Below, in pieces: positions 1 to 35,458 of a stretch of DNA of 64,000 nucleotides. Under the pieces are notes generated by a model, which did not search any database, had not been told where the DNA came from, and saw nothing but the letters and a program-made list of their open reading frames with translations. The position numbers and the translations under genes are program-made. Within the stretch, counting starts at the first letter, position 1, and each line of letters begins with the position of its first letter. This DNA is from a virus. Location of the stretch: positions 1-64,000 of the IMG/VR virus record IMGVR_UViG_3300049736_000695; one strand, 5' to 3'.

Positions 1-749
1 AGACGCTTAGAATGTGTCGTAGTACTTGTTTGTGATGCTGTAGAATCTGCATCATTTCTCAGTCTTGAATCTGCGGTGTTTATTGTGTATTGAGGACAAT
101 AGAAATTATTTTCATTCCATAGATGTCTCATTAGATCTGGACTAAATTCAAGATCTGTTAACATATGTGAATAGTAATAACCAGTCACTACATTTGAATG
201 CTCAACCCACATACCAAACAATTTGTCGGTCATAATCACATGAATTGCATAACAATTGCCAGGATTTATTGGCATTCTCCACAGAGATGCGCCTGTATCA
301 CCAGTCCAACTGCCGGCAGTGTCACCTGTACTGTATGGAAATGCCTGTGAGTTAGCTTTATCAGTAGTACGACATATCAAACCATAAGTATCATACCATC
401 TAATTGTGACGTAATTAAATGCACCAAAATTTGTATCAGTACTACCAGCTTCTTGATTACCATAATGGTATTTTTTAAATCTAATGTAATGATTATTATA
501 CGAAGCGGTGGTAGTGTTATTTCCAGTAACACTTCTATAAATGTTTGCTGATGGTCTATTGGCTGTATCATTAATAATTACTGAAGCAGCAGCATTAATA
601 TACGTTGAATTCATATCACTTGTTGCAGTATGAGTACCATCCAGAAATCCTTGAATTTCATCCATCACATACCGTCTATGAGCGGCGTTGCTCATATTAG
701 TTGAGCCACCCCAACTGGTATGATTCATTATTAGTTTTAAATATGCCAT
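1..749 (-). CDS. putative virion/tail-associated protein, runs off the window edge (3' partial)
   Basis: Not in ORF track. Open frame from ATG at 749 (TAATG overlap with upstream stop): MAYLKLIMNHTSWGGSTNMSN... with no stop before base 1; lies in the fibre operon. Confidence 0.7.
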   Translation of the reverse strand, partial: MAYLKLIMNHTSWGGSTNMSNAAHRRYVMDEIQGFLDGTHTATSDMNSTYINAAASVIINDTANRPSANIYRSVTGNNTTTASYNNHYIRFKKYHYGNQEAGSTDTNFGAFNYVTIRWYDTYGLICRTTDKANSQAFPYSTGDTAGSWTGDTGASLWRMPINPGNCYAIHVIMTDKLFGMWVEHSNVVTGYYYSHMLTDLEFSPDLMRHLWNENNFYCPQYTINTADSRLRNDADSTASQTSTTTHSKR

Positions 750-1024
750 TAGTGTAGCTCCTCTAGATCGCTGTTTGATGAATCATAATCATGCCCACCT
801 AAAACAAATATATTCGTTGTTCCGCCAGATTGATGGCCAAGTTCTTCTGTACCAATCGAATGATTAGTAATTAAGTTTGGTAAATCATCATCGCTTACTC
901 CGACAATGCGATACCAATGAGCAGAATCCCAATTAACATCCGATGCTGTCATCGGTTCTCCGACGGAATCTACAAGTTTAAATAGGTCTAGTGCAGATTG
1001 TTTAGCATCTGAATCCCATGACAT
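749..1024 (-). CDS. small acidic hypothetical protein (fibre-associated), 4 DS motifs
   Basis: 91-aa ORF, GGAG SD upstream, coupled to downstream gene. Confidence 0.7.
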   Translation of the reverse strand: MSWDSDAKQSALDLFKLVDSVGEPMTASDVNWDSAHWYRIVGVSDDDLPNLITNHSIGTEELGHQSGGTTNIFVLGGHDYDSSNSDLEELH

Positions 1025-1036
1025 TGTTACTTCTCC

Positions 1037-2602
1037 TTATTTATAAGATATGACGACATTCAAATCAGATCCTGCCGTAGAAGAACCAATTTGTGTTATG
1101 TCGATAGTTAAATAGTCGCCTTCGGCAACTGATAAATTTAAATTATTCGTAACATTAGTGGTAGAACCATCAGCAATATTAAAAGTTGATATCGATGAAC
1201 CATTCTTTTTTAATGTCATATTTAGCGTTGCTCCTGCTGGCGCCACAGAAACGTGTTTTCTAATCTTTGTGATAGTCACGGCTCGAGGTGAATACCACCG
1301 TGCCGTACCAGCAGCTACAGTTAATGCCCCATCTTGAACAAATGTGGTATTATTTTCTTTTTGAATTGTTGATGATGCTGCATCTGTAAATCCTAGTCTC
1401 GTAGCAATATAATCAGAATCAATTAAAGTTGTCTTTGTTCCAGAAATTATACCTTCTACCTTTGCCGAATCAAGAGAACTTGCCACAAATGTTTCTGATG
1501 CATCTAAAATATTTTTTTCTTGCATAAAGGTTTTCATTCTATTTTCATTAATAGAATTATTGGTAATTTCTTCTTTAATACGATTTACAAATGAAACCGT
1601 TTTATTCATATAATCACCCAAGTCTTGTGGAACAAACTTATTTTTTGCTGCATCATATGTTAAACACATTTGACTTTGTATGGTTGGAACTTCTTTTATA
1701 GGAACTTCAGTAGCATGGCCTTCCTGAGAATGCTGTAGATAAATTATATCTTGACCTGCTCCATTGCTATCTGTTTTTAAATCTTTAATAGTGATATTAC
1801 CACGCATGGCACCATGGATACCACACTGATATGTTAATGTACTAGGCGCATCAGCGGGAACAACAAACGTCATCGTTGCATTATTATTTGCTCTTGAATT
1901 CGTAACTCCAGATGTATATTCACCAACATAATTACCAGATACAAAATTGTCACCATTATCTGTTGAAAGATAAATTGGATGTCCATTTGTGCTTGAGTCT
2001 AAAACAAATTCATATGTATTACCTTTATAGAATGGACCCAACGCCTGATTGTTTCCCATTCTAAGTCCAGTGAAAGTATATGCTCCTGAAACTGCACCAA
2101 TATTATATGTGTGTGTAGAAGTATTTAATGACGGTATTGTGTAACTTGCAGGAACACTCCATGATAACCTTTGCGCCCTTGTAGCAGAATCAGTACCACC
2201 AGAATCTGTTACTCCAACAAAAGAATAACTTCCGCTATCATATGTTACCCAATCAACAAGGTTTGCTGTGCCAGCTTCATTTAACCATTTTAGAAAAATT
2301 TTATGAGTTTGGTCTGCATCACCACGTGTTCTAAAAGCAGTAAAATTATCTAAGCGATATGTCCCTTGCTTGTAAATAGGAACTTCATTTTGTGCTTTCA
2401 TAGTAATAGATTCTCTTCCATAAGGAAGAGTCGTAACATTCCATGACCATTTCCAATCGGGCATGTGACCCGCTGAATCTACATCAGTTGCAAAATTTAA
2501 CGTTTCTGGGTCAATTGACTGATCCACCAGCGCATCAAATGCACTTTCTCTCACATCACCGGATAAGTTTATTACAGTCGCAAGTTTCTTATTTATGCTC
2601 AT
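1037..2602 (-). CDS. tail-fibre/virion structural protein with cupredoxin-like domain
   Basis: T/S/G-rich beta composition; GHP...YQCGIHGAM type-1-copper-like motif. Confidence 0.7.
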   Translation of the reverse strand: MSINKKLATVINLSGDVRESAFDALVDQSIDPETLNFATDVDSAGHMPDWKWSWNVTTLPYGRESITMKAQNEVPIYKQGTYRLDNFTAFRTRGDADQTHKIFLKWLNEAGTANLVDWVTYDSGSYSFVGVTDSGGTDSATRAQRLSWSVPASYTIPSLNTSTHTYNIGAVSGAYTFTGLRMGNNQALGPFYKGNTYEFVLDSSTNGHPIYLSTDNGDNFVSGNYVGEYTSGVTNSRANNNATMTFVVPADAPSTLTYQCGIHGAMRGNITIKDLKTDSNGAGQDIIYLQHSQEGHATEVPIKEVPTIQSQMCLTYDAAKNKFVPQDLGDYMNKTVSFVNRIKEEITNNSINENRMKTFMQEKNILDASETFVASSLDSAKVEGIISGTKTTLIDSDYIATRLGFTDAASSTIQKENNTTFVQDGALTVAAGTARWYSPRAVTITKIRKHVSVAPAGATLNMTLKKNGSSISTFNIADGSTTNVTNNLNLSVAEGDYLTIDITQIGSSTAGSDLNVVISYK

Positions 2603-2627
2603 TTTACCTTATCCTGATTAATACGTC

Positions 2628-2999: not shown

Positions 3000-3011
3000 T
3001 TTATTTTCTCC

Positions 3012-4347: not shown

Positions 4348-4775
4348 GCGAGGTCTCCATGTACGACACCGTAATTAAAATAATCAAAATGTAGACGAGA
4401 AGATCCATCATAATACGAGTAAAATTGCACCGAACTTGTTAGCGCTCCAGTTCTTGTGCCCATTCCTGCCAACCCATCTGTTGTAAAATTATGATAAACT
4501 TGGGCAGTCCTTGTATATACATCATTACCCCATCCAGTGTCATCAAAATTACAGTAATAAGTTTGTGAAGTCATATTATTTGTATATGAAACTGTTCGAT
4601 TCCCAGTACCGCCATCGACTAAACTACTTGAATTAATTCCACCGCTCATTGTCACAAATGCAGTTCCTGTATTATTTACACAGAAAAGTGCTTTTGCCGC
4701 AGTCTGATTAGTCAGTGCCGCTGGTCCATTACCAGTTATATTTGATAGCGTTGTTACTCTGAGTTCACTCGTCAT
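4344..4775 (-). CDS. small tail-fibre module (AKA...GDLA family)
   Basis: MTSELRV..L start, AAKA...SSLVDGGTG...GDLA end. Confidence 0.65.
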   Translation of the reverse strand: MTSELRVTTLSNITGNGPAALTNQTAAKALFCVNNTGTAFVTMSGGINSSSLVDGGTGNRTVSYTNNMTSQTYYCNFDDTGWGNDVYTRTAQVYHNFTTDGLAGMGTRTGALTSSVQFYSYYDGSSRLHFDYFNYGVVHGDLA

Positions 4776-5020
4776 TAGCTTATCACCAAGTTACCGTTGA
4801 TTGTTAGCACTACACCACTATCAAATGACATTGGTCCAGCAACATGCGCATTCTCTGCACTGTCTATTGTAGTATTTATATTGAGAGACTGTGAATTAAT
4901 TCTAAACATGTCACTCTTCAACTTGCCACTTAGTGAAAGAACTGTAGCAGAATCGGTTCCACCTCCACCGCCGCCAGCGCTGGTACTCCAATTGCTTCTT
5001 ATGTCTGTTAAATTTGCCAT
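4775..5020 (-). CDS. short fibre adaptor protein
   Basis: FRIN.Q.L..NTTI...ENA.VAGP....GV.LT.NG.LVI pattern; Gly linker followed by TDSAT. Confidence 0.6.
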   Translation of the reverse strand: MANLTDIRSNWSTSAGGGGGGTDSATVLSLSGKLKSDMFRINSQSLNINTTIDSAENAHVAGPMSFDSGVVLTINGNLVIS

Positions 5021-5021
5021 A

Positions 5022-8000
5022 TTAGTTCTCTATCAATACCCAACCTTGAGCAACGTTGTAATAAACCAATCCAATACCTGCTCTGTCTACGTTAATTGTT
5101 AAATCAGTTGTTCCACCTTGAATCTTATGACCATTCCGAGATACTGTAATATTATTTGATGATGCATTTCCTGTCACATCGATAATTCTAATTTCATCAC
5201 CTATACTTGCAGATGACGGAAGTGTTATAGTTTTAGCGGTTGATGTATCAATAAAGAGTTTATCACCTGCAGTTGCCGTAACTGGTGTACCACTTGGTGC
5301 TGACCATGCATTTGTTTTAATTGCATTTGTATTTGACACAAAAGATGCAATCTTAATTTCATCACTTGCATCGGCACCAGATGTAAGAACAACTGACATA
5401 CCATTATTTGCATTATAGTCATCTGAATCATTCAGTAACAGACCATTCATAAAGACTTGAATATTGCCAGTTTGATATGCAAGTGAAGTACCTGTAATAT
5501 CATTACCTTGGAAAATTGTTTGTCCAGAATCTGCAGTAAACTTATACAGCTCCATATTCTGACCAGGGTTACTAAATGCTGATACTATGATTTCATCATT
5601 CACGCTTGCTGCAGTTACGAGATTAATAGTTGAGCCATTCGTTGCGCTATAATCAACAGCTCGAAGTATGATACCATTCATATGAACTTGAATTGCGCCA
5701 GGTGCATACGATAGTGTATTACCATTAATATCAGCACCGCTAAATGATGTTTGATTAGCAGTTGCAGTAAATTCGTAATTTGCCACATTAGGTGATACAA
5801 CAACACCCTTACGGTTAATAAGAGTAACAATATCATTTGAATCCGTAGCAGATACAAGAGTTACAGTAGTACCAGCGTTAGTAGAATAATCATCTGAATC
5901 TTTGAGAAGAATACCATTGAGATATACATCTAAACCGCCAACTGAATAATCAAGAGTATCTCCATTATCATCATTGCCGGTAATTGAAGTTGTTGGTGTT
6001 GGCGTTGTAAAGTAGTATTTGGCTTCTACTAGTGCTCGTTGGGTAGCGACACGTCCACGCCTTTCAATAATTGAGACGCTGTATCCGCTGTCGACTCCTG
6101 TTCCGAACGTGACTGCTGATGTACTAGCAGTGTAATCATCATTGACTACTTGCAAGACACCATTGATATAGACATCAAGATGAGTAGCATCAATTGAACT
6201 ATGATTAAAGACTGTTTGTGCTGCTGTCGCTGTGTATTGCGATCTTTGTGTAGTAAATTCGCCACGAGTAAAGTCCACCTTTGAACCAATATAATCAGAA
6301 TCAACAGTCGATGTAATAAGAGCAATCGTTGCTGCTGAATCTGTTCCTGCCGCAGTTCTAGCTTGAACATATGCAGAATCAATAAGTGTTGTTACATTGG
6401 AATTACCATATGTACTTAGTTCAGAATAGTTAGCTAATCTTGTCCAGTTTCCTGCATGGGCAAAGTAACCAGCACCAGTACCATGAACATGAGCAAACAT
6501 ACCATGATAATTTGTGGCACTTGGTAATCCACCAACAGAATCATATACATTACCAAAGAGAACTTTGTTCCCTTCCATATCTAAATCTGATTTGGTAACT
6601 CTTAATCTTACATAATTGGAATCAATTAATGCAATCGCCTCGGCAGAATCAACAAAGTCTGTACCGAGAGTTGGAATAGTTGGAGTTCCTGTTAATGAAC
6701 TATATGCAAAGTCTTGTGCAGTTTGACGCGCTTGTACATAACCGCTATCTACAATTGCAAGAATACCAGACGAATCTTGAAACCGATCGCGAAGTTGAAT
6801 ATATGCCGAATCAACAAGATTTAATACATGAGAGGAATCAAATGGATTGACCCTAGCATTTATATAAGCAGAATCGATTAAAGATATTACGGCAGCCGAA
6901 TCGGTACCAGCTGCGGTTCTAGCTTGAATATAAGCACTATCAACGTTTGACGTAATAAGAGTTGTAACCCGACCTGAATCAACTCCAACATTATTACCAG
7001 AAAGTCTGTTAATTGTAATAAGATTGCCTGAATCAGCTGCAGTTGTTAAAGTAACTTTATTATTATTTGATGTGGAATAGTCGCCATTTGCTAATAATAC
7101 ACCGTTTAAAAATACTGTAACTTTATCATCAGTAAAATCTAGTGATTGTGAATTATCATCAGATCCTGTAAATATGGTTTGACCGGAATCTGCTGTAAAT
7201 TCAAAAAGCGTTTGTTCAAGAGGAGAGAACGTGCCAGTGCTACCTGACAAAATCTGGATATCTACAATGTCTCCTACAGTCGCTCCATTTATAAGTGTTA
7301 CATTACTACCAGCTCCGTTTTGAGTATAATCGGCTGAATCAAGAAGAAGTAAACCATTCAAATAAACGTTAATTCTATCTTGAGTATAGCTCAGTATTTG
7401 CGAATTATCGTCAGATCCTGTAAATAATGTTTGACCGGAATCTGCCGTGTAAATATAATGTCTTTGCTTTACTGCTACATGGCCAGTATCGTTACCAGAA
7501 AACTTAATAACTTCAAGAACATCACCACTATCGGCAGCTACTAATAAATCAACTTTTGATGAATTGTGAGTGTAATCAGATCTTGGAAGTAAAAGACCAT
7601 TCAGATAAACTTGGAATTTACCTGAATCAACATCAAGTCCAGTAAATGATGATTGACCTGAATCGGCATTAAAGTTAAATACTGTTTGAGTCAATTCAAC
7701 AGCAGTTGCAGAACCACCACCGCTACCACCAGCAATAGTAATAGTTTTTGTTGCGCCTGTTCCGGATGCGACAACACCAGAACCTACAAAATTAATTGTA
7801 GAAGCGGCAGTTGATAATGATGATCCTTCATCTTGTATTGTAATGGCGGATCCGCCACCACCTGATGACTGTCTTGCTTGAATATAAGCACTATCTACGA
7901 TAGCAATAATGTCTGCACTATCTACTGTACCACCACCGCCGGTGGTTTGTCTTGCTTGGATATAAGCAGAATCAATAAGGTTAATAGCGTCCGCAGAATC

Positions 8001-11000
8001 TAAATCTGATTTAGCATTAATAAGAGCCAGTAATGTATCCATAGCGGAATCATCATCATTTAAGGCTGCAGCTATTTCATTAAGAGTGTTGAGAGTACCG
8101 GGAGCGCCATCGATTAATGCGTTAATTTGACTGGTAACAAAGGCTGAGTCAACGTAATCTGTTCCGAATGTTGGAACTGATACTTCATCTAAAATAACAA
8201 TATTACCAACCATGCCACCATGATTAGTACATTGATAAACTAGTGAAGTCGGAGCATTCATATCCGGAGTAAAAAGAATATCTCCAGTTTGAGCACCGTT
8301 ATTTGTTACGCCTGTGCTATACGCTGATCCACCATTTGAAACTCTAATTTGGAATGGATGACCAGATGCTGCCATGGCAAATTTATATGTTTTACCACGT
8401 GTAAGATATAAGGTAGGATTATTACGGCCTGATGAAAAGCCGTCACCATTAAACGTATAAGCAGAAGAACCACTACTTGTAACATTAAAAATAGATTCTA
8501 CTGGTCTTCTTAATTCTATATAAGCAGAATCGACTGTAGAATTAATAAGGGATATTACTGTAGCAGAATCTGTTCCTGATTCACCATACACATTATTAAA
8601 TGTTTGTACAATATTAGTATCTGGATAAGATCTACCGGCACCCCAAATAATTCTTACGGCACCCCTTTTACCATGATTGGCAATCCCAGTACCACCTTCA
8701 CCATACAATTTAGTTAAAGCGGCGGCTGATGTTCCTAGTAGACTAGCGGCACCTGAAGTTGAACCGTTACCGGTATATTGACCGGCTCCACGAACTCCAC
8801 CGTTACCACCACCGTCATAGGATAAAGTTGTACCACCGGAACCACCACTACCATTACTGGCTCCGGAGCCACCAGTACCACCATTTGCTTGCAATAATAC
8901 AGTAGAGCTTCTTTTTATAGTAGTATTTCCAGCAGCGTCACCGCTTCCAACCGCGCCGGGTGGATCACTAGGCGCTTGACCACCATTGCCACTATGGCCA
9001 ACCGTAATTGTAAGTGTTTCGCCTGGAGTAACAGTAAGAGAAGTGTCGTATGATAGACCACCACCGCCACCATCACCACCACTACCGGACTGAACACCAC
9101 CTCCTCCACCACCACCAGCAATGGCGACGGCAGAAATAGTAGTAACTCCGGTCGGGACGATAAATGAATATACTTTATCTGTTAACCCACCTTCATTACC
9201 AATAAACTCTCTTGATTCAAAGTCATCAAATGATGCATCGGTAATATATCCTACATCATTATCAAAGTCACTGAGCTTAGTAGGTTTTGTAGAACCAGTT
9301 ATATAGAAATAATCGTATTGTTGTCTAGCTCTTACATATGCGGAATCAATAAGGTCAATTGCTTCTGCTGAATCTAGAGCATTTACGCGTTCTGCAATAT
9401 AAGCAGAATCAATGGCATTTGTCAATGACACATATGATTTTGAAGCAGCAACTGTTGCTGTTGCGCCATATACAGGCGAACTTGTACCGTATCCTGTGCC
9501 AGAAGTTGCATCACCAACAACATATGGATTATTAAATCCTCCAGAAGTATTAACGTTAATTCTAGGTGAATATGTTGAAATTAGAGGTAGTGTACCACCA
9601 TTTGCACTAATTGCCGCACCAATACCGCCAACGTAATCTGTATCATTAACCCAGCTGTATCCCGTTCCAACCCAACTAACAGTTACTACATTATTGGTTC
9701 TAGAAGCACTAGCTGTTCTAGTAGAACCAACACTATTGAAATTATCTCCAATGGAATAGTATTTTCCACCAGCATCTTTAAATCCTAATACAGTACCGGT
9801 AGTACTGCCTGGAAATTGTACTCCGTGAATTAATCCTTCGAAGTTTTCTGCAGATGCATCAGTGTCAAATGTCCAAGTTGCGTTATTTGTACCAGTTGCA
9901 ACTGCTGTTAGACCGAGCGCGGTTCTAGATGATGATGGTGCTGTAAAGGAAACTCTTTCACTAACATATGCACTATCAACAAGTTTAATAACTAATGCAG
10001 AGTCTAATCCACCACTTGCAATCGCAGGCGTATTAGTAAAGTTATTATAGTCAAGATAGAATGTGCCAGTTTGACCGTCGAGATTATCGGCATCGATATT
10101 TAATGAATTTACAAATGTTTGAGTAACTGTAGAAGTTACAAGAGATGAATCTTGAAATCTATCTCTTAGTGCAACATAGGCACTATCAACAAGAGCAATT
10201 ACGAGATCTGAGTCTAGACCTTCACGAGTAATAATATTTACAACTGTTGCAGAATCAATATAATTATTTCCAAATGATGGAATAGTTGGTGTATTTGTAA
10301 AATTAGTATAATCTAAATAGTGTGTACCGTTTTGGCCATCTAATGTGTCTGCGTCGACATTAAGCGCGTCAACAAAAGCTTTGTCTACATCAGCAGTAAC
10401 TTGTGTTGATACATCAGTAAGATCTAAAATTGCTGGTTTATTTGTAAAGTTATTATAATCAAGGTAATAATTACCATGTTGTCCATCTAATGTGTCTGCA
10501 TTAATATTTAATGTATTTACAAAAGCTGTATTAACATGTGAATCAATAATTGCTACTGCTTCGGCTGAATCTAAGAAATCATATGTAATTTGCCTTGCTT
10601 GAACATGAGCAGAGTCAATAACATTTGTTATAAACCCAGAGTCTCTCTGTAAGTCTACCTGACGTGCTTGAATATAAGCGCTGTCAATAAGTTGAATTGC
10701 ATCTGCTGAATCAAGAAATGGTGCTTCTTGAACACGAGCAAGAACATACGCAGAGTCAACTTTGTCTTCAATTGTGTTATTAATTGTAATACTAACAGTA
10801 TTGCCAGAATCATTAAGTGAAGCAGCAATATCAGAATCGGCTCTTGCTTTAGTATAATATAGATTTGTGCCTTCAGGCAAATTAGTTGTAGATTTAGTAG
10901 CATATTTAATTTCAAAATCAGAATCATGATTTGCAGTTGTGTAATGATCTGATCGAGCATTAATATAAGAGGAATCGATAATCGTAGCAAGATATGATTC

Positions 11001-11270
11001 AGGAATTAAAGCCTGAACATATGTAGCATCAATAAGACTTGTTACTTCGGCAGAGTCAAGTTGAGCTTGGGCTACAACCTCTACGGCATCAGCAATTGCT
11101 GCAACTCGTGCAGAGTCAACGAACGCCTGTATTTGATTGCTGCTAGTTTTATAGTAGATTTTTCCGTCGGCAAAGTTAATGGCGAGTTCGCCATAATCTA
11201 GATCGCTATCTACTGGTACTTTACCTACTACGGAAGACCGTTTAAGTAGTACTTTTGGTGTTGTTGTCAT
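5022..11270 (-). CDS. long modular tail fibre protein (2082 aa), about 57 DS motifs
   Basis: N-terminal KRSSV.GKVP...L.YGELAIN..DGK.YY fibre/neck motif, DSAY.QAR repeats, ADTLDG repeats, Gly-rich domain, cupredoxin-like domain, about 7 VYLNG..L...DY repeats, C-terminal ITLP..A..GD.I.IID domain. Confidence 0.85.
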   Translation of the reverse strand: MTTTPKVLLKRSSVVGKVPVDSDLDYGELAINFADGKIYYKTSSNQIQAFVDSARVAAIADAVEVVAQAQLDSAEVTSLIDATYVQALIPESYLATIIDSSYINARSDHYTTANHDSDFEIKYATKSTTNLPEGTNLYYTKARADSDIAASLNDSGNTVSITINNTIEDKVDSAYVLARVQEAPFLDSADAIQLIDSAYIQARQVDLQRDSGFITNVIDSAHVQARQITYDFLDSAEAVAIIDSHVNTAFVNTLNINADTLDGQHGNYYLDYNNFTNKPAILDLTDVSTQVTADVDKAFVDALNVDADTLDGQNGTHYLDYTNFTNTPTIPSFGNNYIDSATVVNIITREGLDSDLVIALVDSAYVALRDRFQDSSLVTSTVTQTFVNSLNIDADNLDGQTGTFYLDYNNFTNTPAIASGGLDSALVIKLVDSAYVSERVSFTAPSSSRTALGLTAVATGTNNATWTFDTDASAENFEGLIHGVQFPGSTTGTVLGFKDAGGKYYSIGDNFNSVGSTRTASASRTNNVVTVSWVGTGYSWVNDTDYVGGIGAAISANGGTLPLISTYSPRINVNTSGGFNNPYVVGDATSGTGYGTSSPVYGATATVAASKSYVSLTNAIDSAYIAERVNALDSAEAIDLIDSAYVRARQQYDYFYITGSTKPTKLSDFDNDVGYITDASFDDFESREFIGNEGGLTDKVYSFIVPTGVTTISAVAIAGGGGGGGVQSGSGGDGGGGGLSYDTSLTVTPGETLTITVGHSGNGGQAPSDPPGAVGSGDAAGNTTIKRSSTVLLQANGGTGGSGASNGSGGSGGTTLSYDGGGNGGVRGAGQYTGNGSTSGAASLLGTSAAALTKLYGEGGTGIANHGKRGAVRIIWGAGRSYPDTNIVQTFNNVYGESGTDSATVISLINSTVDSAYIELRRPVESIFNVTSSGSSAYTFNGDGFSSGRNNPTLYLTRGKTYKFAMAASGHPFQIRVSNGGSAYSTGVTNNGAQTGDILFTPDMNAPTSLVYQCTNHGGMVGNIVILDEVSVPTFGTDYVDSAFVTSQINALIDGAPGTLNTLNEIAAALNDDDSAMDTLLALINAKSDLDSADAINLIDSAYIQARQTTGGGGTVDSADIIAIVDSAYIQARQSSGGGGSAITIQDEGSSLSTAASTINFVGSGVVASGTGATKTITIAGGSGGGSATAVELTQTVFNFNADSGQSSFTGLDVDSGKFQVYLNGLLLPRSDYTHNSSKVDLLVAADSGDVLEVIKFSGNDTGHVAVKQRHYIYTADSGQTLFTGSDDNSQILSYTQDRINVYLNGLLLLDSADYTQNGAGSNVTLINGATVGDIVDIQILSGSTGTFSPLEQTLFEFTADSGQTIFTGSDDNSQSLDFTDDKVTVFLNGVLLANGDYSTSNNNKVTLTTAADSGNLITINRLSGNNVGVDSGRVTTLITSNVDSAYIQARTAAGTDSAAVISLIDSAYINARVNPFDSSHVLNLVDSAYIQLRDRFQDSSGILAIVDSGYVQARQTAQDFAYSSLTGTPTIPTLGTDFVDSAEAIALIDSNYVRLRVTKSDLDMEGNKVLFGNVYDSVGGLPSATNYHGMFAHVHGTGAGYFAHAGNWTRLANYSELSTYGNSNVTTLIDSAYVQARTAAGTDSAATIALITSTVDSDYIGSKVDFTRGEFTTQRSQYTATAAQTVFNHSSIDATHLDVYINGVLQVVNDDYTASTSAVTFGTGVDSGYSVSIIERRGRVATQRALVEAKYYFTTPTPTTSITGNDDNGDTLDYSVGGLDVYLNGILLKDSDDYSTNAGTTVTLVSATDSNDIVTLINRKGVVVSPNVANYEFTATANQTSFSGADINGNTLSYAPGAIQVHMNGIILRAVDYSATNGSTINLVTAASVNDEIIVSAFSNPGQNMELYKFTADSGQTIFQGNDITGTSLAYQTGNIQVFMNGLLLNDSDDYNANNGMSVVLTSGADASDEIKIASFVSNTNAIKTNAWSAPSGTPVTATAGDKLFIDTSTAKTITLPSSASIGDEIRIIDVTGNASSNNITVSRNGHKIQGGTTDLTINVDRAGIGLVYYNVAQGWVLIEN
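10021..10500 (-). repeat. three copies of ADxLDGQxGxxYLDYxNFTNxP repeat within the long fibre
   Basis: Visible in translation (approx. aa 257-417). Confidence 0.8.
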
Positions 11271-11298
11271 TTCGATTCCTAAGAAGGATAGTTAGTGC

Positions 11299-11306
11299 TA
11301 TTTATA
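11299..11306 (-). promoter_or_regulatory. T4-type late promoter TATAAATA
   Basis: Exact consensus, intergenic, upstream of the 2082-aa gene. Confidence 0.8.
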
Positions 11307-11307
11307 C

Positions 11308-12840
11308 TTAATAAGTTCCGCAATCAATAGTTTGTATTTCTACGTTACCCGCAGTTACTAAGAAATCAACCGAATCAAATTTTGCTCCACCTATATTATT
11401 AGATGTGGCCAATTCTGTACTAAGTGTAAGAACACCGGTTGCGTCATTGTAAGCTGCGTCTAGCCCTTCGGCCATTGATAACAAAGCTGCAACTCTGTCA
11501 TCAACTCTTTCATTTGTATAATATAAGTTAGTTCCTTCTGGTAGTACCGTTGTTGATGCATCTGCAAGGTCACTATCAAAATTTGTTTTAGTGTATACTT
11601 GTTCAACATCAATACTAAATACACCAGTAGATGAATTATAATCTAGATCTCCGGTTGCAGAAAGCTGTGATCTAATTTCACTAGCAGAAACTCCGGTAAA
11701 ATCAAATCTGCCTCGAGCAGAATCATAGGCTAAAGTACCAAATCCTGAAGGATTAGTAACAGATAAAGCACTGCGAGCAGCTAGGTCTGCACGTGCATTC
11801 GTATAATATAGATTTGTAGAACCTTCTGGTAATCTATCTGTTGTTGTGTTATTAAGATCGGAATCAAATCCAAGATAAGTTCCCGAGAATGTTGATGTAC
11901 TGATTGTTCCGGAAACATCAATATTATCAGCAAGTATTTTTTTATTAAAGTTCCAAGTGTCTGTAGCCGCTTTATAGAAAATATGTGCGTTTGCACCTTC
12001 TACTGTAATACCTGCAGAATCCGCTGCAACTGCATTTGCAGCACCTGACGCGAGTACAATATTTTTATCATCAACTTGAAGTGTAGTTGAATTAATAGTA
12101 GTCGTTGTACCATCAACCTGTAAGTTACCTGCAATAATAACTGTACCGGTATTACCTGGCGCATGTGGATCAAGCGTAAGGTTACCGCTAGTTGTAGCAA
12201 TTGTATTGCCATTAATATCTACATTGTCAACAGTAAGTCGAGAAAGCCCGAGTACATCAGAATCAAGATGTACTTTAACCTGTACACCACTTACAGTTTC
12301 TTTACGAACAGTATTAAGATTAAAACCACCGTTAATAGTTGCAGTTTCATCAAATCCAAGTTGACCGTCGCCAGTATTAACATCGCCACCAATATTAATT
12401 ACTGCTTTAGTGTCTACGTAATTTTTAGTAGCAGCGTCTTGTGCACTAACCGGATCTACAACATTCCTAATAAGAGATGTAGATGCTTGAATAGAACCGG
12501 CGCCGTTAGGACTGAATGTAATATTACCGTTTGTATCAGTTGACGCAATAGTATTTCCATCAATATTAATATTGTCAATATCGATTTTATTGATTTTACC
12601 ATTTGCATCTGTAATAATAGCACTAGATGGTACAACTGAACCTTTTGGATGGTCCATCATATCGGTGTAATATTTACCACCGATTGTATCTACACCGCCT
12701 GCAGCATTACCAATAAAGAGTCTATCACCACCTGCGCTGTCACCCGTAACAAATGAATAAGCAAGTTCTGCCGGTGTTACAGCACTATCTGGTACTACGG
12801 CAGTAGTGGTACTATTTTTGATTTGAATTTTAATTGCCAC
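11308..12840 (-). CDS. tail/whisker fibre protein
   Basis: GTG start; IDNI.IDGNTI repeats, DP..AQDAATKNYVD, TTTINSTTL.VDDKNI.L, LPEG.TNLYYT repeats, terminal IDCGTY. Confidence 0.8.
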   Translation of the reverse strand: MAIKIQIKNSTTTAVVPDSAVTPAELAYSFVTGDSAGGDRLFIGNAAGGVDTIGGKYYTDMMDHPKGSVVPSSAIITDANGKINKIDIDNINIDGNTIASTDTNGNITFSPNGAGSIQASTSLIRNVVDPVSAQDAATKNYVDTKAVINIGGDVNTGDGQLGFDETATINGGFNLNTVRKETVSGVQVKVHLDSDVLGLSRLTVDNVDINGNTIATTSGNLTLDPHAPGNTGTVIIAGNLQVDGTTTTINSTTLQVDDKNIVLASGAANAVAADSAGITVEGANAHIFYKAATDTWNFNKKILADNIDVSGTISTSTFSGTYLGFDSDLNNTTTDRLPEGSTNLYYTNARADLAARSALSVTNPSGFGTLAYDSARGRFDFTGVSASEIRSQLSATGDLDYNSSTGVFSIDVEQVYTKTNFDSDLADASTTVLPEGTNLYYTNERVDDRVAALLSMAEGLDAAYNDATGVLTLSTELATSNNIGGAKFDSVDFLVTAGNVEIQTIDCGTY

Positions 12841-14921: not shown

Positions 14922-14932
14922 ATGGAGTATGA

Positions 14933-15619: not shown

Positions 15620-15623
15620 TATA

Positions 15624-17753: not shown

Positions 17754-17765
17754 GAGATTTATTTA

Positions 17766-23582: not shown

Positions 23583-24060
23583 TTTGAATTGCTGATTCTA
23601 AAGCATCGATAGTATTAACCGCTTTTCGTATTTTAGCCTTTGCTTCTCTATCAGTTGAATTTTTAATAGCATCAAATTCAAACAATGCAAGTTTAAAAGC
23701 AAATAAAGATTCCTTTGCGGTTTGTTCGTTTTCGTCTTCAATAAAAATAATATCTAAAAGTTTTTTGTACGAATCGCTATTTTTTTCATCAAATTCTAAA
23801 AGCATGCCGCGCTTTTTAGCAATTGCCATAACCTCACTTTCATAATCTTCTTGAGATTGTCTAATGTACTCATGAGTTGATTCGTGCAATTCATCAATAG
23901 TAATATGTTTTAAAAGTTTTTTCCACTGAGGATTACCATCTTCTGCAGAAATAACATAAGGTATTTGATTGCCTTCATCATCCGCATAATATGCTTTTAC
24001 TTCTGTTCTTTCATTATTTCCAAAGTGTGCTCTAATAAATTTCATTTGCGTTATCCTCAA
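23566..24060 (-). CDS. hypothetical protein (possible fibre assembly factor)
   Basis: 164-aa ORF ending the structural operon; likely start is MKFIRA after GAGG. Confidence 0.6.
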   Translation of the reverse strand: MRITQMKFIRAHFGNNERTEVKAYYADDEGNQIPYVISAEDGNPQWKKLLKHITIDELHESTHEYIRQSQEDYESEVMAIAKKRGMLLEFDEKNSDSYKKLLDIIFIEDENEQTAKESLFAFKLALFEFDAIKNSTDREAKAKIRKAVNTIDALESAIQIIKQN

Positions 24061-25241
24061 ACTGGTTCAGTGTATGATCTAAGACTGTAAGTATTTTGAA
24101 TTTGTGGAGTACCATTAGGAAACTCTTGTGTACGATAGTTGTCGCCTGATGCTGGCTGATTCGGCCCTGTTGTATAACCCGCTGCTGAGCTTCCATCTAA
24201 TCTTTCATTCTCAACTTCGCCTGATCCTGCATCAAGCGGTGAAGAGCTTCCGCCGGTACCTGAATTAACTCCATTAATATTGTTCTGAATATACCAATGA
24301 AGCTTACCCGCTCCCGCCGAGTTATATCCATTTGCTGCAATATGTTGTACATATGGTTCAAAGAACTGTTGCATGCCCGCAAGGCTCCATTCGTGTATGC
24401 CACCATTTGCGTCAGCGTATACCATGTTTGGCGGTGGCGGCGGTGAATATGCTGGATCTTTATCCATAGAATAAAGATCCCATTTATTTGCATTGGTAAC
24501 GGCTAGTGGCTGATCTAGAGTTTCCGGAATTCCACCAGAAGTATATGCGTTTTTATTAGCAATTGTATCTTCAAATACTCTTCCCATACTTGTAAGAGTA
24601 CCTCCTTCATCATGCGTAGCAGGCACAGTAAAGTCTTTACGAATGATTGCGTATCCGCCATTTCTACCGATTACAATATCCGGATGTGTAAGATTTGATT
24701 TGTTTCCACCAATTTCAGCAAGAGCTTCTGCAACCAATTCAGCGAGTAGAAGCATTGGAAATTTTCTCATATTCTTTCTATTAGGCGAATATGAACCGAG
24801 AGTAAGCGGCGGTGAATCACACCCATAATTTAATATATTAGGCATAGGTACAGTCGTATCATAATTCACTTGAATTTTAGTCCAGTCAAATTCAAGTGAA
24901 TTAATATTAGGTGTTTGGCTTGCGCTTCGAAATGAACTTACGTGATTAGTAGCTGATCCGGCCTGATAACGAGTATCACGCATAATACCGAGGTTACCGC
25001 CAGATCCTACATATGACAATGTAACTGTTTGATTTCGAGTATAAAGATGCCGAATCCAATTATAAAACTGCAAAAGTTCAGTTGTATTCATTTCACGAAG
25101 ACCGTGCGCACCACCCTTTGTTCTAGAACCATAAAAATCATAACCACTAATAACATTACCGGTGTCGTTATTATTCATATATAATGTAGGATATCTTCTA
25201 TCAACTACAAGAGGTCTTGGAGCGGGTATTAATAATGACAT
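24057..25241 (-). CDS. putative virion structural protein
   Basis: G/S/N/T-rich 394 aa, YRTQEFPNG C-terminus, in late operon. Confidence 0.6.
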   Translation of the reverse strand: MSLLIPAPRPLVVDRRYPTLYMNNNDTGNVISGYDFYGSRTKGGAHGLREMNTTELLQFYNWIRHLYTRNQTVTLSYVGSGGNLGIMRDTRYQAGSATNHVSSFRSASQTPNINSLEFDWTKIQVNYDTTVPMPNILNYGCDSPPLTLGSYSPNRKNMRKFPMLLLAELVAEALAEIGGNKSNLTHPDIVIGRNGGYAIIRKDFTVPATHDEGGTLTSMGRVFEDTIANKNAYTSGGIPETLDQPLAVTNANKWDLYSMDKDPAYSPPPPPNMVYADANGGIHEWSLAGMQQFFEPYVQHIAANGYNSAGAGKLHWYIQNNINGVNSGTGGSSSPLDAGSGEVENERLDGSSAAGYTTGPNQPASGDNYRTQEFPNGTPQIQNTYSLRSYTEPV

Positions 25242-25253
25242 AAATTATAGTCC

Positions 25254-25913
25254 TTAAGGTACGTTAATATCACTATCAGTAGAAAGTAAATAACCGCCTA
25301 ACAATATTTGACCGATAGAATCTTTTATAGTAAATGGAAATACATGAGAAAAATCTATACTATCGAACTGAAAGTTACTTTTTACTACTAAGTTATTTAC
25401 AGTAGCATGACTTATATACGCACTATCTTCTACATTTAATTTATTAAAGCTTGCGCTATCATAATCTATATATTCACCTGATAAGTATTTAATTCTTCCA
25501 CTATCAAATTGAATTGACTGACCAGATAAGAAAGCAATTTCTGCACTTTCAATATGTGCGTCTACAAAATCGAGTTGATGCCCTCTTAAGATATGAGTGA
25601 ATGCTGAATCAACATCAGCACTATCTGCATACATGTAGTTTGCTCGCACTCTATTAATAACTGCACTATCAGCATAAATCGTAGAAACTTGCAGCGCTCC
25701 ACCAGAATCAAATAGTGCAGCTGAAACACTATCTATTTCACGGTGTAGATGATTAAGAGCTGAAACAAAATTTGAATCATTCTTACCAAACCTAGAAGAT
25801 TCAAAATGAGAATCAAGTAAATCTAGATCACCGAAATTATCTGACAGCACATTATTCTTAGCAATCCAGGTGCCGATAGAATTTGAAGTCTGTATTTGTA
25901 TTCTACGTGTCAT
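25254..25913 (-). CDS. DS-rich fibre-like virion protein (13 DS in 219 aa)
   Basis: N-terminal SN.....N.....GDLD.L shared with neighbour; beta-repeat body. Confidence 0.7.
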   Translation of the reverse strand: MTRRIQIQTSNSIGTWIAKNNVLSDNFGDLDLLDSHFESSRFGKNDSNFVSALNHLHREIDSVSAALFDSGGALQVSTIYADSAVINRVRANYMYADSADVDSAFTHILRGHQLDFVDAHIESAEIAFLSGQSIQFDSGRIKYLSGEYIDYDSASFNKLNVEDSAYISHATVNNLVVKSNFQFDSIDFSHVFPFTIKDSIGQILLGGYLLSTDSDINVP

Positions 25914-25929
25914 GTTCTATCTCTTGTTC

Positions 25930-25937
25930 TATTTATA
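25930..25937 (-). promoter_or_regulatory. T4-type late promoter TATAAATA
   Basis: Exact consensus upstream of 25913. Confidence 0.7.
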
Positions 25938-27108
25938 ACCGGTTATCCGAATCATATTGACTTAGCATTAATGTCCCGAAATGTATAGTACTACCATCAG
26001 ATTCATAAATTGTAAATGGAGAAGTATATTCAAAGCCACTATCAAGTCTTCCATGAAAATCAGCTCTATAAGATGAATCGAATCCTACTGGAATTGCAGG
26101 AGGAGTTGCTGAATCAAACGATGAGTCTACATCAAAAACAAATCTTTTAACATGTAGAGGAGAAGGGACATATAAGTTATCTCCATCTGATTCAACTATC
26201 CAAGTATCAAATGTGGCAGATTCGCGTACTACTATTTTTTTAAAATTAGCGCTATCATAATCAAGAGTCCAATTTTGAGAACTATCAGTTGAGTCTGGCG
26301 CTAAGAGTGTAATTGTGCTTTTGCCAGAATCAAAACTTAATGGAGTATTAATATTTATTGTTGACGAATCAAATGTATATCCATTTGGAAAACCTGGTTT
26401 GCGCGGTCTTGGGAATGGGAAAAGATTACGTGGACCATGTACAACGCCAATATATGCGCTATCTCTAACTGTAAATCCAAAATTAAAGACCGGTACAAAA
26501 CTACCTATACTATCAGTGCTATCATTAAAGAATGTACGGAAGCTGCTATCGCTTACCATCCATCGACCGACGTCTAAATCAATACCAGAAAAATTTCGTA
26601 TATAACCGCTGTCAATCGTAATTCCGGTATTAAAAACCGGCCCACCTTCAAAAGACGGTGTATAAAAATTACTGTCTAGACTATCTCTTACAATAGTTGC
26701 TGATGTAGAACTCAGATCAGAGTCTACTGGAATGAATAGCCCTTGTATTGTAAATCTTTTAAATACTGCACTATCTGCAACAAGAACTCGCTCAAAGCGT
26801 AATGTTGAAAATTCTAAACTGCTATCTACACTATCATTACTATCTAAAATTTCTTGGCCAAACATGGCCACTCTACATTTTTCTAGTTCACTATGTAACC
26901 ATTCTGCAGCAGCTACAGCTGACTGATTTGCAAGTCCACCGTTTTCGGTGTACTCGTTATCTTCAAAACCGCCTAAGTAGCTTCTTGTGCCTTTATAATT
27001 TCTTTTATTAAGGTCATCTAGATCACCAAGCCACTCATCCATTTGATTAATCTTATTAATCGTAGCAACGAGCGTATTGCTCATATTAAATATTACTTTA
27101 CGCGCCAT
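25933..27108 (-). CDS. DS-rich fibre-like virion protein (22 DS in 391 aa)
   Basis: Paralogous N- and C-termini with 25254-25913 (GDLD.L; PFTI..S.G....G..LS.DSD). Confidence 0.7.
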   Translation of the reverse strand: MARKVIFNMSNTLVATINKINQMDEWLGDLDDLNKRNYKGTRSYLGGFEDNEYTENGGLANQSAVAAAEWLHSELEKCRVAMFGQEILDSNDSVDSSLEFSTLRFERVLVADSAVFKRFTIQGLFIPVDSDLSSTSATIVRDSLDSNFYTPSFEGGPVFNTGITIDSGYIRNFSGIDLDVGRWMVSDSSFRTFFNDSTDSIGSFVPVFNFGFTVRDSAYIGVVHGPRNLFPFPRPRKPGFPNGYTFDSSTININTPLSFDSGKSTITLLAPDSTDSSQNWTLDYDSANFKKIVVRESATFDTWIVESDGDNLYVPSPLHVKRFVFDVDSSFDSATPPAIPVGFDSSYRADFHGRLDSGFEYTSPFTIYESDGSTIHFGTLMLSQYDSDNRL

Positions 27109-27313: not shown

Positions 27314-27315
27314 TA

Positions 27316-32864: not shown

Positions 32865-32874
32865 ATTCTAATCC

Positions 32875-34230
32875 TTAAAATTGAATAATAACTTTAACGT
32901 CTTCATTTTGTGCAATGCTTCTATCAACCGGAGATCTGTTATCAATAAACAATACTTCACCAGTTGAAGGTAATACTTCTGGTAATATAGCTGCTGAATC
33001 TACTGTTCCTTCACCGGCTCCATTTGTTTCTTCAATTAATTCTCCTGGTTGAAAAGCTACAAAACCAGTGGCATTCGTTTGGTGATAATATAGAATATCT
33101 GAATCTACTTCATCTATATATGCTTCTGCTAAAGTAGTTGCACCACGAATAATTTTATCTGCAGTAAATTGTGTAATAATCGCGCCAAGTTTCATAGACT
33201 TAAGCGCATTACCCGTTGTTTCTGTAAAGATTGAACCTGAATTACTTTGTATATCTCTTATTAAACCGACTTGTCTAAAATCTTGATTTACAATAAAGTC
33301 ACTATCAGTTCCCTTTAGTTCTGCATGGAACATGACCGATGCTGATTTAAGATCTTCGCGTGGATCACGGCCAATACCAGAATCAGGTCCGAGTACTGCT
33401 CGTGCTGTAGCATTAAGTGTTGCACCTCCACCAGTAATTGAAATCGTGGGATTCGTATAACCCGAGCCATGCCCTGCAACATCACCGTTTGTACTATCAT
33501 CCATACGAATACGAACAACTTGTCCCGTTGCTGAATCAATAGTAATATTAAAACTAGCATTGTTTCCATTAGGATCTGTAATTGTTGCAGTTGGAACACT
33601 CGTATAACCTGCTCCACCGTCTGTTACAATAATACTTAATATTTCACCGGGTGTTGCCGCATTTTGTACGGCGGCTTGTTTAAGCTGAATACCAGTTGAA
33701 TTAGAATCAGTTGTGTCTTGTAAAAGTGTAGGCATAAAATTTGCTGATAAGAAATTATTTGCTCTTTCAGCACTAATTGTAAATAGGAATTTCCATACGT
33801 AACCATCAGCTTCTCTACGAGAATCAAGATTAGCATGAGTAGGTTGCTCAATAGAAGGACTTGCTGCGCCAGTAGCATCACGTCCAGTTTCTAAACAGAC
33901 ATAGACTTGACGTGATTCATTCATTATATAATACGGCAGTGTAGGATATCCTCCTTGCTGATCATCATACTGTGAGTAAATTCTACCAGATGACCATGTA
34001 TTACGTGGAACAACGAGTGATGTAGCTTCAACTTTCTTTACAGACTGTAAGCTATTTCTAAATGCCTCAGTAGTAGTTGGAGTGTTAGTAGGTGTTGGGA
34101 CCGTATCTGAAGAATCCCACTGCTCTGATCGTCCTATACCAATATAATACTTTCTTGTATCATTAGTAAATTGATCAAAGAAGTCCTGTGCAATTTGTCT
34201 TCTTAGTGCGTCTGTTACAATCGCTGGCAT
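32875..34230 (-). CDS. gp8: baseplate wedge subunit gp8-like
   Basis: YYIGIGR...W, VPR..W.SG..Y, VYVCL, DGYVWKFLFTI, FRQVGL, GEVLFIDNR.P..R...Q.EDVK.IIQF. Confidence 0.85.
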   Translation of the reverse strand: MPAIVTDALRRQIAQDFFDQFTNDTRKYYIGIGRSEQWDSSDTVPTPTNTPTTTEAFRNSLQSVKKVEATSLVVPRNTWSSGRIYSQYDDQQGGYPTLPYYIMNESRQVYVCLETGRDATGAASPSIEQPTHANLDSRREADGYVWKFLFTISAERANNFLSANFMPTLLQDTTDSNSTGIQLKQAAVQNAATPGEILSIIVTDGGAGYTSVPTATITDPNGNNASFNITIDSATGQVVRIRMDDSTNGDVAGHGSGYTNPTISITGGGATLNATARAVLGPDSGIGRDPREDLKSASVMFHAELKGTDSDFIVNQDFRQVGLIRDIQSNSGSIFTETTGNALKSMKLGAIITQFTADKIIRGATTLAEAYIDEVDSDILYYHQTNATGFVAFQPGELIEETNGAGEGTVDSAAILPEVLPSTGEVLFIDNRSPVDRSIAQNEDVKVIIQF

Positions 34231-34243
34231 TTTCTATATCCTA

Positions 34244-35458
34244 TTAAGTACTAATTTGATTTCCAAGTGCAATTCTTCTGTAATATCCCGCATCACTGTC
34301 GTAGACTGCAAGACAAGGTGCACCGGAATTACCGTTATTAACAAAAATTGTATTGCCATGTGGCACACTGTTTGGTACAGTATTTACTTCATAATTTCTA
34401 AAATCAATTTCTACTGCTTTGGCTCTTACATAATCAGAATCAACTGTTGCTTGAACATCCGAATCAGTAAATGCTGCTCTAGGTAGTGCAAACCAGCCAT
34501 CGCTATCTTTAAAGTTAAAATCTTTTGTTGCGCTATTGTAGTGAACTGTACCTTGACCGACAGAGCCACTATTAGTTGAATTATGACCGAGCTGTATATA
34601 ACCCGCAGGAGTATTCGAATCTCCGATTCTAATTTGTGGTGCGTTTTGGCTAAAGTGTACATAACCAAGACCATCAATTGTGCCAAAATTAAACTTAGGC
34701 GATCTTAGATTTACACTACTAGAATCTACAATTGAGTTACCTTTAAGGTCCATAGAATTTTCGACCTTAATATTTGCTTCAATTGGTCGACCAAATGTAA
34801 TATTACTTCCATCATTTTTAATTGTAGTATCACCTAAGTGAATAGTTGAGCCACTTAAATATAAGTCTTTCCATTTACGAGCAGAATCGCCTAGATCATA
34901 CGCGCTATCAATTGAAGGTACAACGTGACCAGCAATGGCTGTTAATTTTGTAAAGAGTGCAGAATCAGTACCGGCAAGTTGTCTAGCCTGAACATATGCA
35001 GAATCAATAAGAACAATGGCTTCAGCCGAATCAATTGAATTAGCTTGAACAATAAGTAGTGTGGCACCTGAATCCTGTGCAACACCAGTTCTTAATGCAA
35101 TATAATCTGAATCAACTGTAGTATTAATAATATTAATTGTAGCTGCATTTACAACTGCACTAATATTTGTATCTAGAACTAGAGTTCCACTTGAATCGGG
35201 TAGGTTGATCGTATTATCTTTAGTAGGATTAATAACGCTTAGTGTAGTTTCAAAAGAATCTGCTGTACCTTCAAATATAACTTCATTACTATCAAAGGTA
35301 ACACCTAAATTAGCAGCAGCACCAGAAGTAACTTGCAGAGTTCTTACATCAGTGTAAAGTTCATCGAAATTATCGTTTATCTTATTGCCAGCAGTGCGTA
35401 AATCGTCACCGGTACCGTCATTACCAGTACTTCCGACATTAATAGTTTGCTTACCCAT
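34244..35458 (-). CDS. gp9/gp10-like baseplate-fibre connector, DS-rich (16 DS)
   Basis: KQTINVG...NDGTGD.LR.AG.KINDNF.ELY N-terminus of T4 gp9/gp10. Confidence 0.8.
   Translation of the reverse strand: MGKQTINVGSTGNDGTGDDLRTAGNKINDNFDELYTDVRTLQVTSGAAANLGVTFDSNEVIFEGTADSFETTLSVINPTKDNTINLPDSSGTLVLDTNISAVVNAATINIINTTVDSDYIALRTGVAQDSGATLLIVQANSIDSAEAIVLIDSAYVQARQLAGTDSALFTKLTAIAGHVVPSIDSAYDLGDSARKWKDLYLSGSTIHLGDTTIKNDGSNITFGRPIEANIKVENSMDLKGNSIVDSSSVNLRSPKFNFGTIDGLGYVHFSQNAPQIRIGDSNTPAGYIQLGHNSTNSGSVGQGTVHYNSATKDFNFKDSDGWFALPRAAFTDSDVQATVDSDYVRAKAVEIDFRNYEVNTVPNSVPHGNTIFVNNGNSGAPCLAVYDSDAGYYRRIALGNQIST

Follow-up and report, generated by a model that had tools for sequence, protein, structure and literature searches.

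The virus-derived DNA analysed here (the window) covers positions 1 to 64,000 of a 78.4-kb IMG/VR contig, IMGVR_UViG_3300049736_000695, approximately 45% of a genome. The window carries the T4-like baseplate genes gp5, gp6, gp25, gp8, a gp9/10-like gene, and a gene for a DUF4815/VrlC-type protein, together with a fibre module into which a block of enzyme genes is inserted in inverted orientation (Table 1). Nine proteins encoded by the fibre module and the adjoining peripheral baseplate genes contain the dipeptide Asp-Ser (DS) in large numbers, and the present analysis concerns the role of this dipeptide. An earlier reading of the same letters, referred to as the original prediction, had regarded DS as the acceptor motif (sequon) of a phage-encoded virion O-glycosylation system. 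No near-identical DNA match was found among 50,697 phage records, and the nearest deposited relatives by gp8 identity are phage C48C1 (34%), the Pelagibacter phages Mosig (29%) and HTVC008M (26%), and cyanomyophages (~26%). Because of these low identities to C48C1, Mosig, and HTVC008M, the window represents a separate, uncultured clade of marine T4-like phages of pelagimyophage-like character. The hosts of the nearest cultured relatives are SAR11 (Pelagibacter) and cyanobacteria, and nothing points to a Bacteroidota host.

Table 1. Features of the window considered in the text (DS, Asp-Ser; aa, amino acids; expected values derive from the composition of each protein).
Feature	Position	Strand	Evidence or remark
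91-aa protein	749..1024	-	4 DS vs 1.6 expected, p 0.06, not significant alone
521-aa fibre-module protein	1037..2602	-	8 DS vs 3.2 expected, z 3.2
81-aa protein	4775..5020	-	3 DS vs 0.8 expected, p 0.03, marginal
2082-aa tail fibre	5022..11270	-	57 DS; Gly_rich_2 domain; repeat units
510-aa fibre-module protein	11308..12840	-	8 DS vs 4.0 expected, z 2.3, weak excess
Inverted enzyme island inside the fibre module	13492..23582	+	enzyme family matches
phrog_1962 glycosyltransferase	20903-21601	+	family match
Two GT8-like proteins	22169-23582	+	family match
394-aa and 164-aa proteins, between the enzyme island and the DS-rich pair	23566..25241	-	not DS-enriched (ratios 0.93 and 1.04); synteny kept
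219-aa protein, predicted triple-stranded beta-helix fibre or spike	25254..25913	-	13 DS; DS repeats and trimer model
391-aa paralogue of the 219-aa protein	25933..27108	-	22 DS, highest density; homologues
VrlC-like DUF4815 baseplate protein, split into 1323 aa and 525 aa	27316..32864	-	not DS-enriched
gp8-like baseplate wedge protein, 451 aa	32875..34230	-	9 DS; Pfam BW3TFN and Phage-Gp8
gp9/10-like baseplate-fibre connector, 404 aa	34244..35458	-	16 DS; T4_gp9_10_N domain
Inner baseplate, hub, and tail-tube-end proteins	36510..49329	.	DS-poor
Second sugar-enzyme cluster	58695..64000	-	two GT25, sulfotransferase, weak nucleotide-diphospho-sugar transferase-like match

The DS counts of the original prediction in the nine proteins are reproduced exactly. 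When the nine proteins are pooled, the number of DS is 140, whereas the composition of the individual proteins would predict 41.9 in total (z 15); among all 400 dipeptides, DS has the strongest enrichment, with SA next (z 7.3). Exclusion of the big fibre leaves 83 DS against 23.8 expected, and shuffle z-scores for the five richest proteins range from 4.1 to 10.7; chance or composition as the source of the excess is ruled out by these pooled and per-protein statistics. A comparison with SD, DT, and ES had been proposed with the original prediction, and these three dipeptides, as well as NS, are at expectation in the same nine proteins. Of the 140 sites, 124 have A, D, G, S, or N directly after the Ser, as had been noted; Ala is the commonest residue there (40%), and D, G, or N occupies the position in 53 sites (38%). 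A small residue follows the Ser in 89% of cases, alike in all structural contexts. The preceding residue is mostly V, I, L, F, or T, and the context logo has a hydrophobic residue at -1 in ~60% of sites and V or I at +4. Furthermore, Ser codons of the TCN and AGY classes are used in a ratio of 95:45 at DS and 243:108 at other serines; because this usage is equal, selection acts on the peptide and not on the DNA, in agreement with the earlier argument from the use of both codon classes.

Related contigs were obtained by a gp8 profile search, and the best 80 of 585 confirmed relatives were used for ratios by family. The ratio of DS to expectation is 4.8 in the 219-aa family (n = 42), 5.3 in the 391-aa family (n = 6), 3.8 in the gp9/10-like family (n = 80), and 3.0 in gp8 (n = 84). 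DS residues have a conservation of 0.90, compared with 0.56-0.67 for Asp or Ser elsewhere and 0.65 when every position is counted. DS enrichment is therefore a strongly conserved, clade-wide trait across more than 80 related uncultured contigs. Substitutions at DS columns follow a pattern: in the gp9/10-like and 219-aa families, Asp mostly gives way to N, G, S, and T, the classical N-cap residues of helices, and Ser is replaced by Ala more commonly than by Thr, the two changes being about equally rare in gp8. Outside the clade, C48C1 has only a mild DS enrichment, in one fibre protein.

The paralogous 219-aa and 391-aa proteins are encoded by adjacent genes. Neither protein matches Pfam or PHROGs, nor do the neighbouring 394-aa and 164-aa proteins, and an ESM Atlas look-up of the 219-aa protein returned only sub-threshold viral hypothetical clusters and no structure. 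Alignment over 19-38 relatives shows the 219-aa family to consist of degenerate DSAx(I/V/F) pentapeptides arranged in tandem, and DS-DS gaps in 38 members peak at 5 (37), 10 (38), 15 (86), and 20 (18). Modelled as a homotrimer, the 219-aa protein has an interface score (ipSAE) of 0.80, vs 0.00 for the best of three controls, with a predicted local distance difference test score (pLDDT) of 87-88; in the calibration of the tool, 20 of 30 solved pairs attained the mark, as did 1 of 23 single chains, and these counts apply only approximately to the present case, in which a custom alignment and three copies were used. More than 1000 contacts are predicted, with an agreement of at least 98% between runs, the interface is continuous over residues 76-184, and the lowest-error inter-chain contacts run from i to i+5, a register that fits a triple-stranded beta-helix with five-residue faces and Asp-Ser at the corners. 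Among 36 homologues of the 391-aa protein, which are 35-91% identical to it, many DS are invariant and new DS occur inside lineage-specific insertions; viral-contig scans with two of them (P0030 and P0031) gave no useful new loci. Its AlphaFold 2 (AF2) monomer has no usable fold (pLDDT 34.5), as would be the case for a protein expected to form an intertwined oligomer.

Triple-stranded beta-helices are known from phage spikes and fibres, including the C-terminal domain of T4 gp5, which is built from an 8-residue VxGxxxxx repeat, and related tail needles. The 219-aa trimer resembles this class at the model level: an intertwined homotrimer is predicted in which each short repeat provides one face, neighbouring strands from different chains are offset by one repeat, and one small or polar position marks the corner. 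It differs in that the repeat comprises five residues (DSAx-hydrophobic) instead of eight and the corner is Asp-Ser instead of Gly; in the present case, it is known as a model only.

The long fibre and the gp9/10-like connector share a second type of DS repeat. The fibre contains 19 units of the form '(V/I/L)DSAY(V/I)QAR', 13 of 'LDSAEAIxL', 4 of 'ADSGQTxFTG', and 3 of 'LLxDSxDY'; 32 of its 57 DS lie in the two halves of one module, which often adjoin, and 7 more in two domain repeats. After collapsing of repeats, its DS reduce to 21-29 contexts against 18.1 expected. The statement that the motif occurs in non-repetitive sequence is thus contradicted by the fibre and by the pentapeptide array of the 219-aa family, and disappearance of the excess upon repeat collapse, named earlier as an outcome contrary to a sequon, nearly occurs in the fibre. 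The module 'DSAEAIxLIDSAYVQARQ' is common to the fibre and the gp9/10-like protein; these two at least do not bear out the claim that DS occurs in unrelated folds, and the nine proteins are not all unrelated. A DS-DS gap of 9 is the commonest in the fibre, and fibre-like and gp9/10 proteins peak at 9. A tblastn search with the DS module region of the fibre gave no match, so the module appears absent from cultured phages. In loci L008-L087, the N-terminal ~60 amino acids of the gp9/10-like connector are kept, its length varies from 170 to 796 amino acids among relatives, and modules are exchanged downstream of the N-terminal anchor.

The AF2 monomer of the gp9/10-like protein is of low confidence (pLDDT 46.8), and only its secondary structure was used. 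In this model, helices start at residues 117, 130, 144, 166, and 341, each of which is the Ser of a DS, and four further DS lie in turns at strand ends. The five helix starts are of the kind that the original prediction had named as contrary to it (DS as helix N-caps), to the extent that a model of this confidence allows. Together with V, I, L, or F at -1 and V or I at +4 in the logo, they would fit a helix N-cap with a hydrophobic staple. The solved fibres 9d93 gp4 (a collar fibre) and 6v8i gp68 (an upper fibre), which have the helical motif 'VDSAP...LDTLNELAAAL', match the 'IDGAP...LNTLNEIAAAL' stretch of the window fibre and read 'VDSAP' at the aligned position, where a helix begins in those structures; the 'DSAP' of the solved fibres aligns with 'DGAP' in the window fibre itself. 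The likeness would lie in an Asp just before the first helical residue, followed by a Ser, and in the hydrophobic character of positions N' and N4. Unlike in the solved fibres, the capped helices here would be very short, with 9-residue spacing, and repeated ~19 times in one protein. Separately, fibre residues 2005-2080 (window 5022-5260), i.e., the C-terminal 76 amino acids, match residues 100-175 of the solved tailspikes 7rfv, 7rej, and 7rfo (E 6e-7) and may form a domain common to these proteins that serves for attachment or as an adaptor at the tip of the fibre.

Beyond the repeat-built proteins, DS is conserved in the globular gp8. Seven of its DS sites show 97-100% conservation among 118 homologues, the most distant of which are 54% identical. 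The gp8 proteins of C48C1 and HTVC008M, which have the same fold and length, carry unrelated residues at those seven sites, and T4 gp8 reads SS where the window gp8 has DS at residue 39; gp8 therefore gained its conserved DS sites only in this clade. As had been predicted, DS in the window is confined to the fibres and the peripheral baseplate. The major capsid, sheath, portal, and tube proteins of three related longer contigs are near DS expectation. Proteins of the neck gene block are DS-rich in related contigs G001 (13009-14220, 8 vs 2.8 expected) and G002 (4623-5612, 19 vs 3.3; 6422-7645, 14 vs 4.1); of these, a match to HTVC008M gp14 was obtained for the first alone, and the second resembles the fibre. 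Outside the window, DS is thus also abundant in probable neck or whisker fibres. Because neck fibre-like proteins are DS-rich while capsid, sheath, portal, and tube proteins are near expectation, the enrichment follows fibrous build and not surface exposure. The dense general glycan coat envisaged in the original prediction is not borne out, as the capsid and sheath, the largest exposed surfaces, lack enrichment.

Besides the phrog_1962 glycosyltransferase and the two GT8-like proteins, the products of the enzyme island are a carbamoyltransferase, a DegT aminotransferase, a nitroreductase-like protein, and three radical-SAM-like proteins. In each of the 22 relatives whose sequence extends far enough, the 164-aa gene is followed by an island of variable content, and GT8 or phrog_1962-type genes are present in five of five further records. 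The observation that glycosyltransferase-rich islands adjoin the DS-richest genes therefore stands, and wherever the sequence of a relative suffices, phage-encoded glycosyltransferases lie with the structural module. The second sugar-enzyme cluster is kept in G001 (77018-84515), G002 (63422-69762), and G003 (2112-4641), with the same gene order in G001 and G002, and is more stable than the variable island. At the place of the island, HTVC008M (56402-59681; L007 31402-34681) has an inverted block of four 2-oxoglutarate-Fe(II) oxygenases and a ferrochelatase. Because HTVC008M has these enzymes where the window has glycosyltransferases, an inverted enzyme cassette appears to be kept at this spot with chemistry that differs between lineages. 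A host recognition cluster has been described in pelagimyophages, in which hypervariable fibres and GT8 and radical SAM genes lie downstream of a VrlC-type gene; the relevant passages of that report propose that the island enzymes modify the host O-chain and make no mention of a DS motif (PMC7029224). The window follows the same plan, being T4-like with a DUF4815/VrlC gene followed by fibres and a GT8/radical SAM island of content varying between relatives, and differs in belonging to a separate uncultured clade by gp8 identity. The VrlC-like protein, which is split in the window, is one open reading frame (ORF) of 1650-1697 amino acids in several relatives (L041, L075, L077, L082, G003), and an extra ORF of ~155 amino acids lies between its halves in some others (L004, L005).

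Taken together, DS is probably a structural cap and corner motif of the trimeric fibre repeats of this clade, notably of a five-residue triple beta-helix repeat, and we favour this reading with some reserve. In the 219-aa family, and probably in the 391-aa family, the DSAx(I/V/F) pentapeptides of three chains would wind into a triple-stranded beta-helix with five-residue faces, the core being filled by the Ala and the hydrophobic residue and each corner being formed by Asp-Ser. In the long fibre and the gp9/10-like connector, a module of ~20 residues, 'LDSAEAIxLIDSAY(V/I)QARQ', repeated ~19 times, would employ the Asp as a helix N-cap and the Ser as the first helical residue, with the hydrophobic residues at -1 and +4 serving as a hydrophobic staple. 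At other sites, DS would close beta-strands at tight turns, and the neighbouring glycosyltransferase islands would serve another target, e.g., the host envelope, as proposed for pelagimyophages. These side-chain roles of Asp and Ser, and the extension of the same logic to the gp8 sites, are what we infer from the models and alignments. On the models, much of the DS excess appears to be explained by structural repeats with DS at beta-helix corners, helix N-caps, and strand-end turns.

Several points weigh against the structural motif as a complete explanation. The evidence for helix capping derives from the model of pLDDT 46.8, and the reading as a whole draws on model scores and contacts, not on the burial or exposure of the Ser hydroxyl. 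The seven strictly conserved DS of the globular gp8, replaced by other residues in outgroups of the same fold, are unexplained structurally, as is the use of one dipeptide in three structural roles in this clade only. DS is also depleted in the inner baseplate proteins, and a purely structural motif does not explain this. In the window, these proteins contain 4 DS against 19.0 expected (ratio 0.21), DS being their most depleted dipeptide, and gp6 has 0 against 3.9 despite 73 Ser. DS had been reported absent from gp6, gp25, the 445-aa hub, the gp32-like protein, and the carbamoyltransferase, and the count is 0 in each. Across the clade, inner-protein representatives less than 70% identical contain 69 DS against 183.8 expected, and among such diverged homologues gp6 has 15 against 53 and gp25 has 1 against 10. 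In four genomes, the inner proteins contain 36 DS against 79.7 (0.45) and 2 full hydrophobic-DS-small motifs against ~12 expected; non-structural proteins have a ratio of 0.86 and 23 full motifs. The depletion is graded, the inner ratio being 0.34 in G001, 0.61 in G002, 0.73 in G003, and 0.56 in C48C1, and it is much weaker in the HTVC008M orthologues (0.78). It does not closely track fibre enrichment, and the sequences share kinship. No reading so far accounts for this depletion, and as evidence for a sequon it is suggestive, not decisive.

The sequon idea stays live because of this depletion and the clade-specific gain of DS in gp8, although we consider it unlikely. According to this alternative, hydrophobic-Asp-Ser-small would be the acceptor site of a phage-encoded cytoplasmic O-glycosyltransferase that decorates fibres, neck fibres, and the outer baseplate. 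In its detailed and equally doubtful form, an oligosaccharide built by both islands, with amino, carbamoyl, and sulfo tailoring, would be placed on exposed trimeric beta-helix corners and helix starts, and inner proteins would be purged of the motif. That they avoid it because modification would disturb assembly is likewise a minority view in our estimation. Glycosylation at DS may coexist with a structural role if the Ser at the beta-helix corners is exposed, as it is in beta-helical adhesins of bacteria that carry glycans. GT8-like or phrog_1962 genes beside the fibre genes in all long loci and further records, the second cluster with its GT25 and sulfotransferase genes, the small residue after Ser across structural contexts, and the depletion in inner proteins and not in non-structural ones are consistent with such a system; so is HTVC008M, which is without GT8 and without a phrog_1962-type enzyme and has at most a weak DS excess in its fibres and gp8. 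By contrast, C48C1 has a phrog_1962-type gene, located elsewhere, yet little enrichment. No DS-enriched relative without a glycosyltransferase, or the reverse, was found inside the clade, and the outgroups HTVC008M and C48C1 are weak controls only; the link between enzymes and DS is perfect within the clade but rests on shared ancestry. The expectation that DS would be gained only together with the glycosyltransferase island is accordingly borne out by gp8 as far as the clade boundary goes, whereas independent contrasts are lacking. Modification of the DS serines is a proposal from sequence alone. Moreover, DT is not enriched, Ser gives way to Ala more commonly than to Thr in two of four families, DS sites are fixed in position as structural residues are, and repeats account for much of the excess. 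The depletion also does not follow the enrichment, in that the G002 fibres reach ~3.5 times expectation while its inner ratio is near those of the outgroups (0.56-0.78). The capsid and sheath lack enrichment, and the published reading of such islands, in the passages concerned, is host envelope modification (PMC7029224).

Comparison with known glycosylation systems bears on the same question. Tailed-phage virion proteins assemble in the cytoplasm. The Bacteroidota O-glycosylation sequon D-(S/T)-(A/I/L/V/M/T), which the original prediction had invoked, is glycosylated in the periplasm, where a lipid-linked glycan is transferred to proteins located outside the cytoplasm (PMC8550257, PMC12871550), and D, G, or N after the Ser is rare or not accepted (PMC12871550). 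DS resembles it in the Asp before the candidate hydroxyl residue and in Ala as the commonest next residue, and differs in the use of Ser only, in the D, G, or N at 38% of third positions, and in the lack of any sign of a Bacteroidota host. A Bacteroidota-type sequon is thus not upheld; membership of that system fails on the motif, and the cell compartment argues against it as well. Mycobacteriophage virions are glycosylated by phage enzymes, with glycans on the major capsid proteins, as demonstrated by experiment according to the account given there (Freeman et al., 2023, Cell Host Microbe, cited in PMC11256854). The window shares with them phage-encoded glycosyltransferases near structural genes and virion proteins as the proposed target, and differs in that the capsid is not DS-enriched and the case is made from the letters of the genome. 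Beta-helical autotransporter adhesins are glycosylated in the cytoplasm, AIDA-I by Aah and TibA by TibC; these enzymes are heptosyltransferases, and the adhesin repeats comprise 19 residues in a single-chain helix. With a repeat-built beta-helix bearing periodic Ser and a transferase encoded nearby, AIDA-I and TibA would be the nearest working analogue if DS were a sequon, along with the mycobacteriophage virions, and no heptosyltransferase of the Aah/TibC family was detected here. The enzymes and targets that define these two systems are not seen in the window.

Two further explanations were weighed against the structural cap and corner motif. It is considerably less probable than glycosylation that DS is read by something other than a glycosyltransferase, such as a fibre-assembly chaperone, fibre-to-fibre docking, or a divalent-cation ladder along the corners, with inner proteins escaping mis-binding. 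Enrichment in fibre-contacting parts (gp8 with its tail-fiber-network domain and the gp9/10 connector) and depletion in inner parts would agree with this, and the stacked Asp/Ser corners of the trimer model would be geometrically suited to ions. The conserved 164-aa gene sits at the position of the annotated tail assembly chaperone in C48C1 and presumably encodes such a chaperone by position. However, no recognisable chaperone family was matched, no reader or metal site was identified, and the idea is built only on what the other two readings leave unexplained. The remaining explanation, to which we give almost no credence, operates on the DNA: wherever a TCN codon comes after Asp, the letters read GANTC, which in Alphaproteobacteria is the CcrM/HinfI site, and selection might act on this site. 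The likely hosts are Alphaproteobacteria, and GANTC occurs at ~1.7 times expectation in the fibre regions (81 vs 48.7 at 749-13390; 69 vs 41.5 at 23566-35458), yet it is at expectation in the inner-baseplate region (32 vs 32.0) and the rest of the contig. One third of DS (AGY) make no GANTC, and ES, which also spells GANTC, is not enriched. The DNA-level explanation is refuted by the Ser codon usage, the ratio at DS being the same as elsewhere, and the GANTC surplus in fibre genes seems to be a side effect of selection on the peptide. In a host with CcrM-type methylation or HinfI-type restriction, this surplus could be of consequence.

Fibre genes are notoriously hard to annotate, and the pelagimyophage fibres could not be identified according to the corresponding passages of the report on these phages (PMC7029224). 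If the structural reading of DS is true, the host-recognition apparatus of this clade would be built largely from an undescribed five-residue repeat (DSAx-hydrophobic) and a DS-capped mini-helix module, which would provide a sequence signature for fibres in marine viral metagenomes and a compact new trimeric scaffold. If DS is instead a sequon, T4-like phages would gain their first example of virion glycosylation directed by a sequon, and pelagimyophage-type glycosyltransferase islands would have to be viewed as decorating the virion instead of modifying the host surface, which would bear on host range and on how long virions survive in the ocean.

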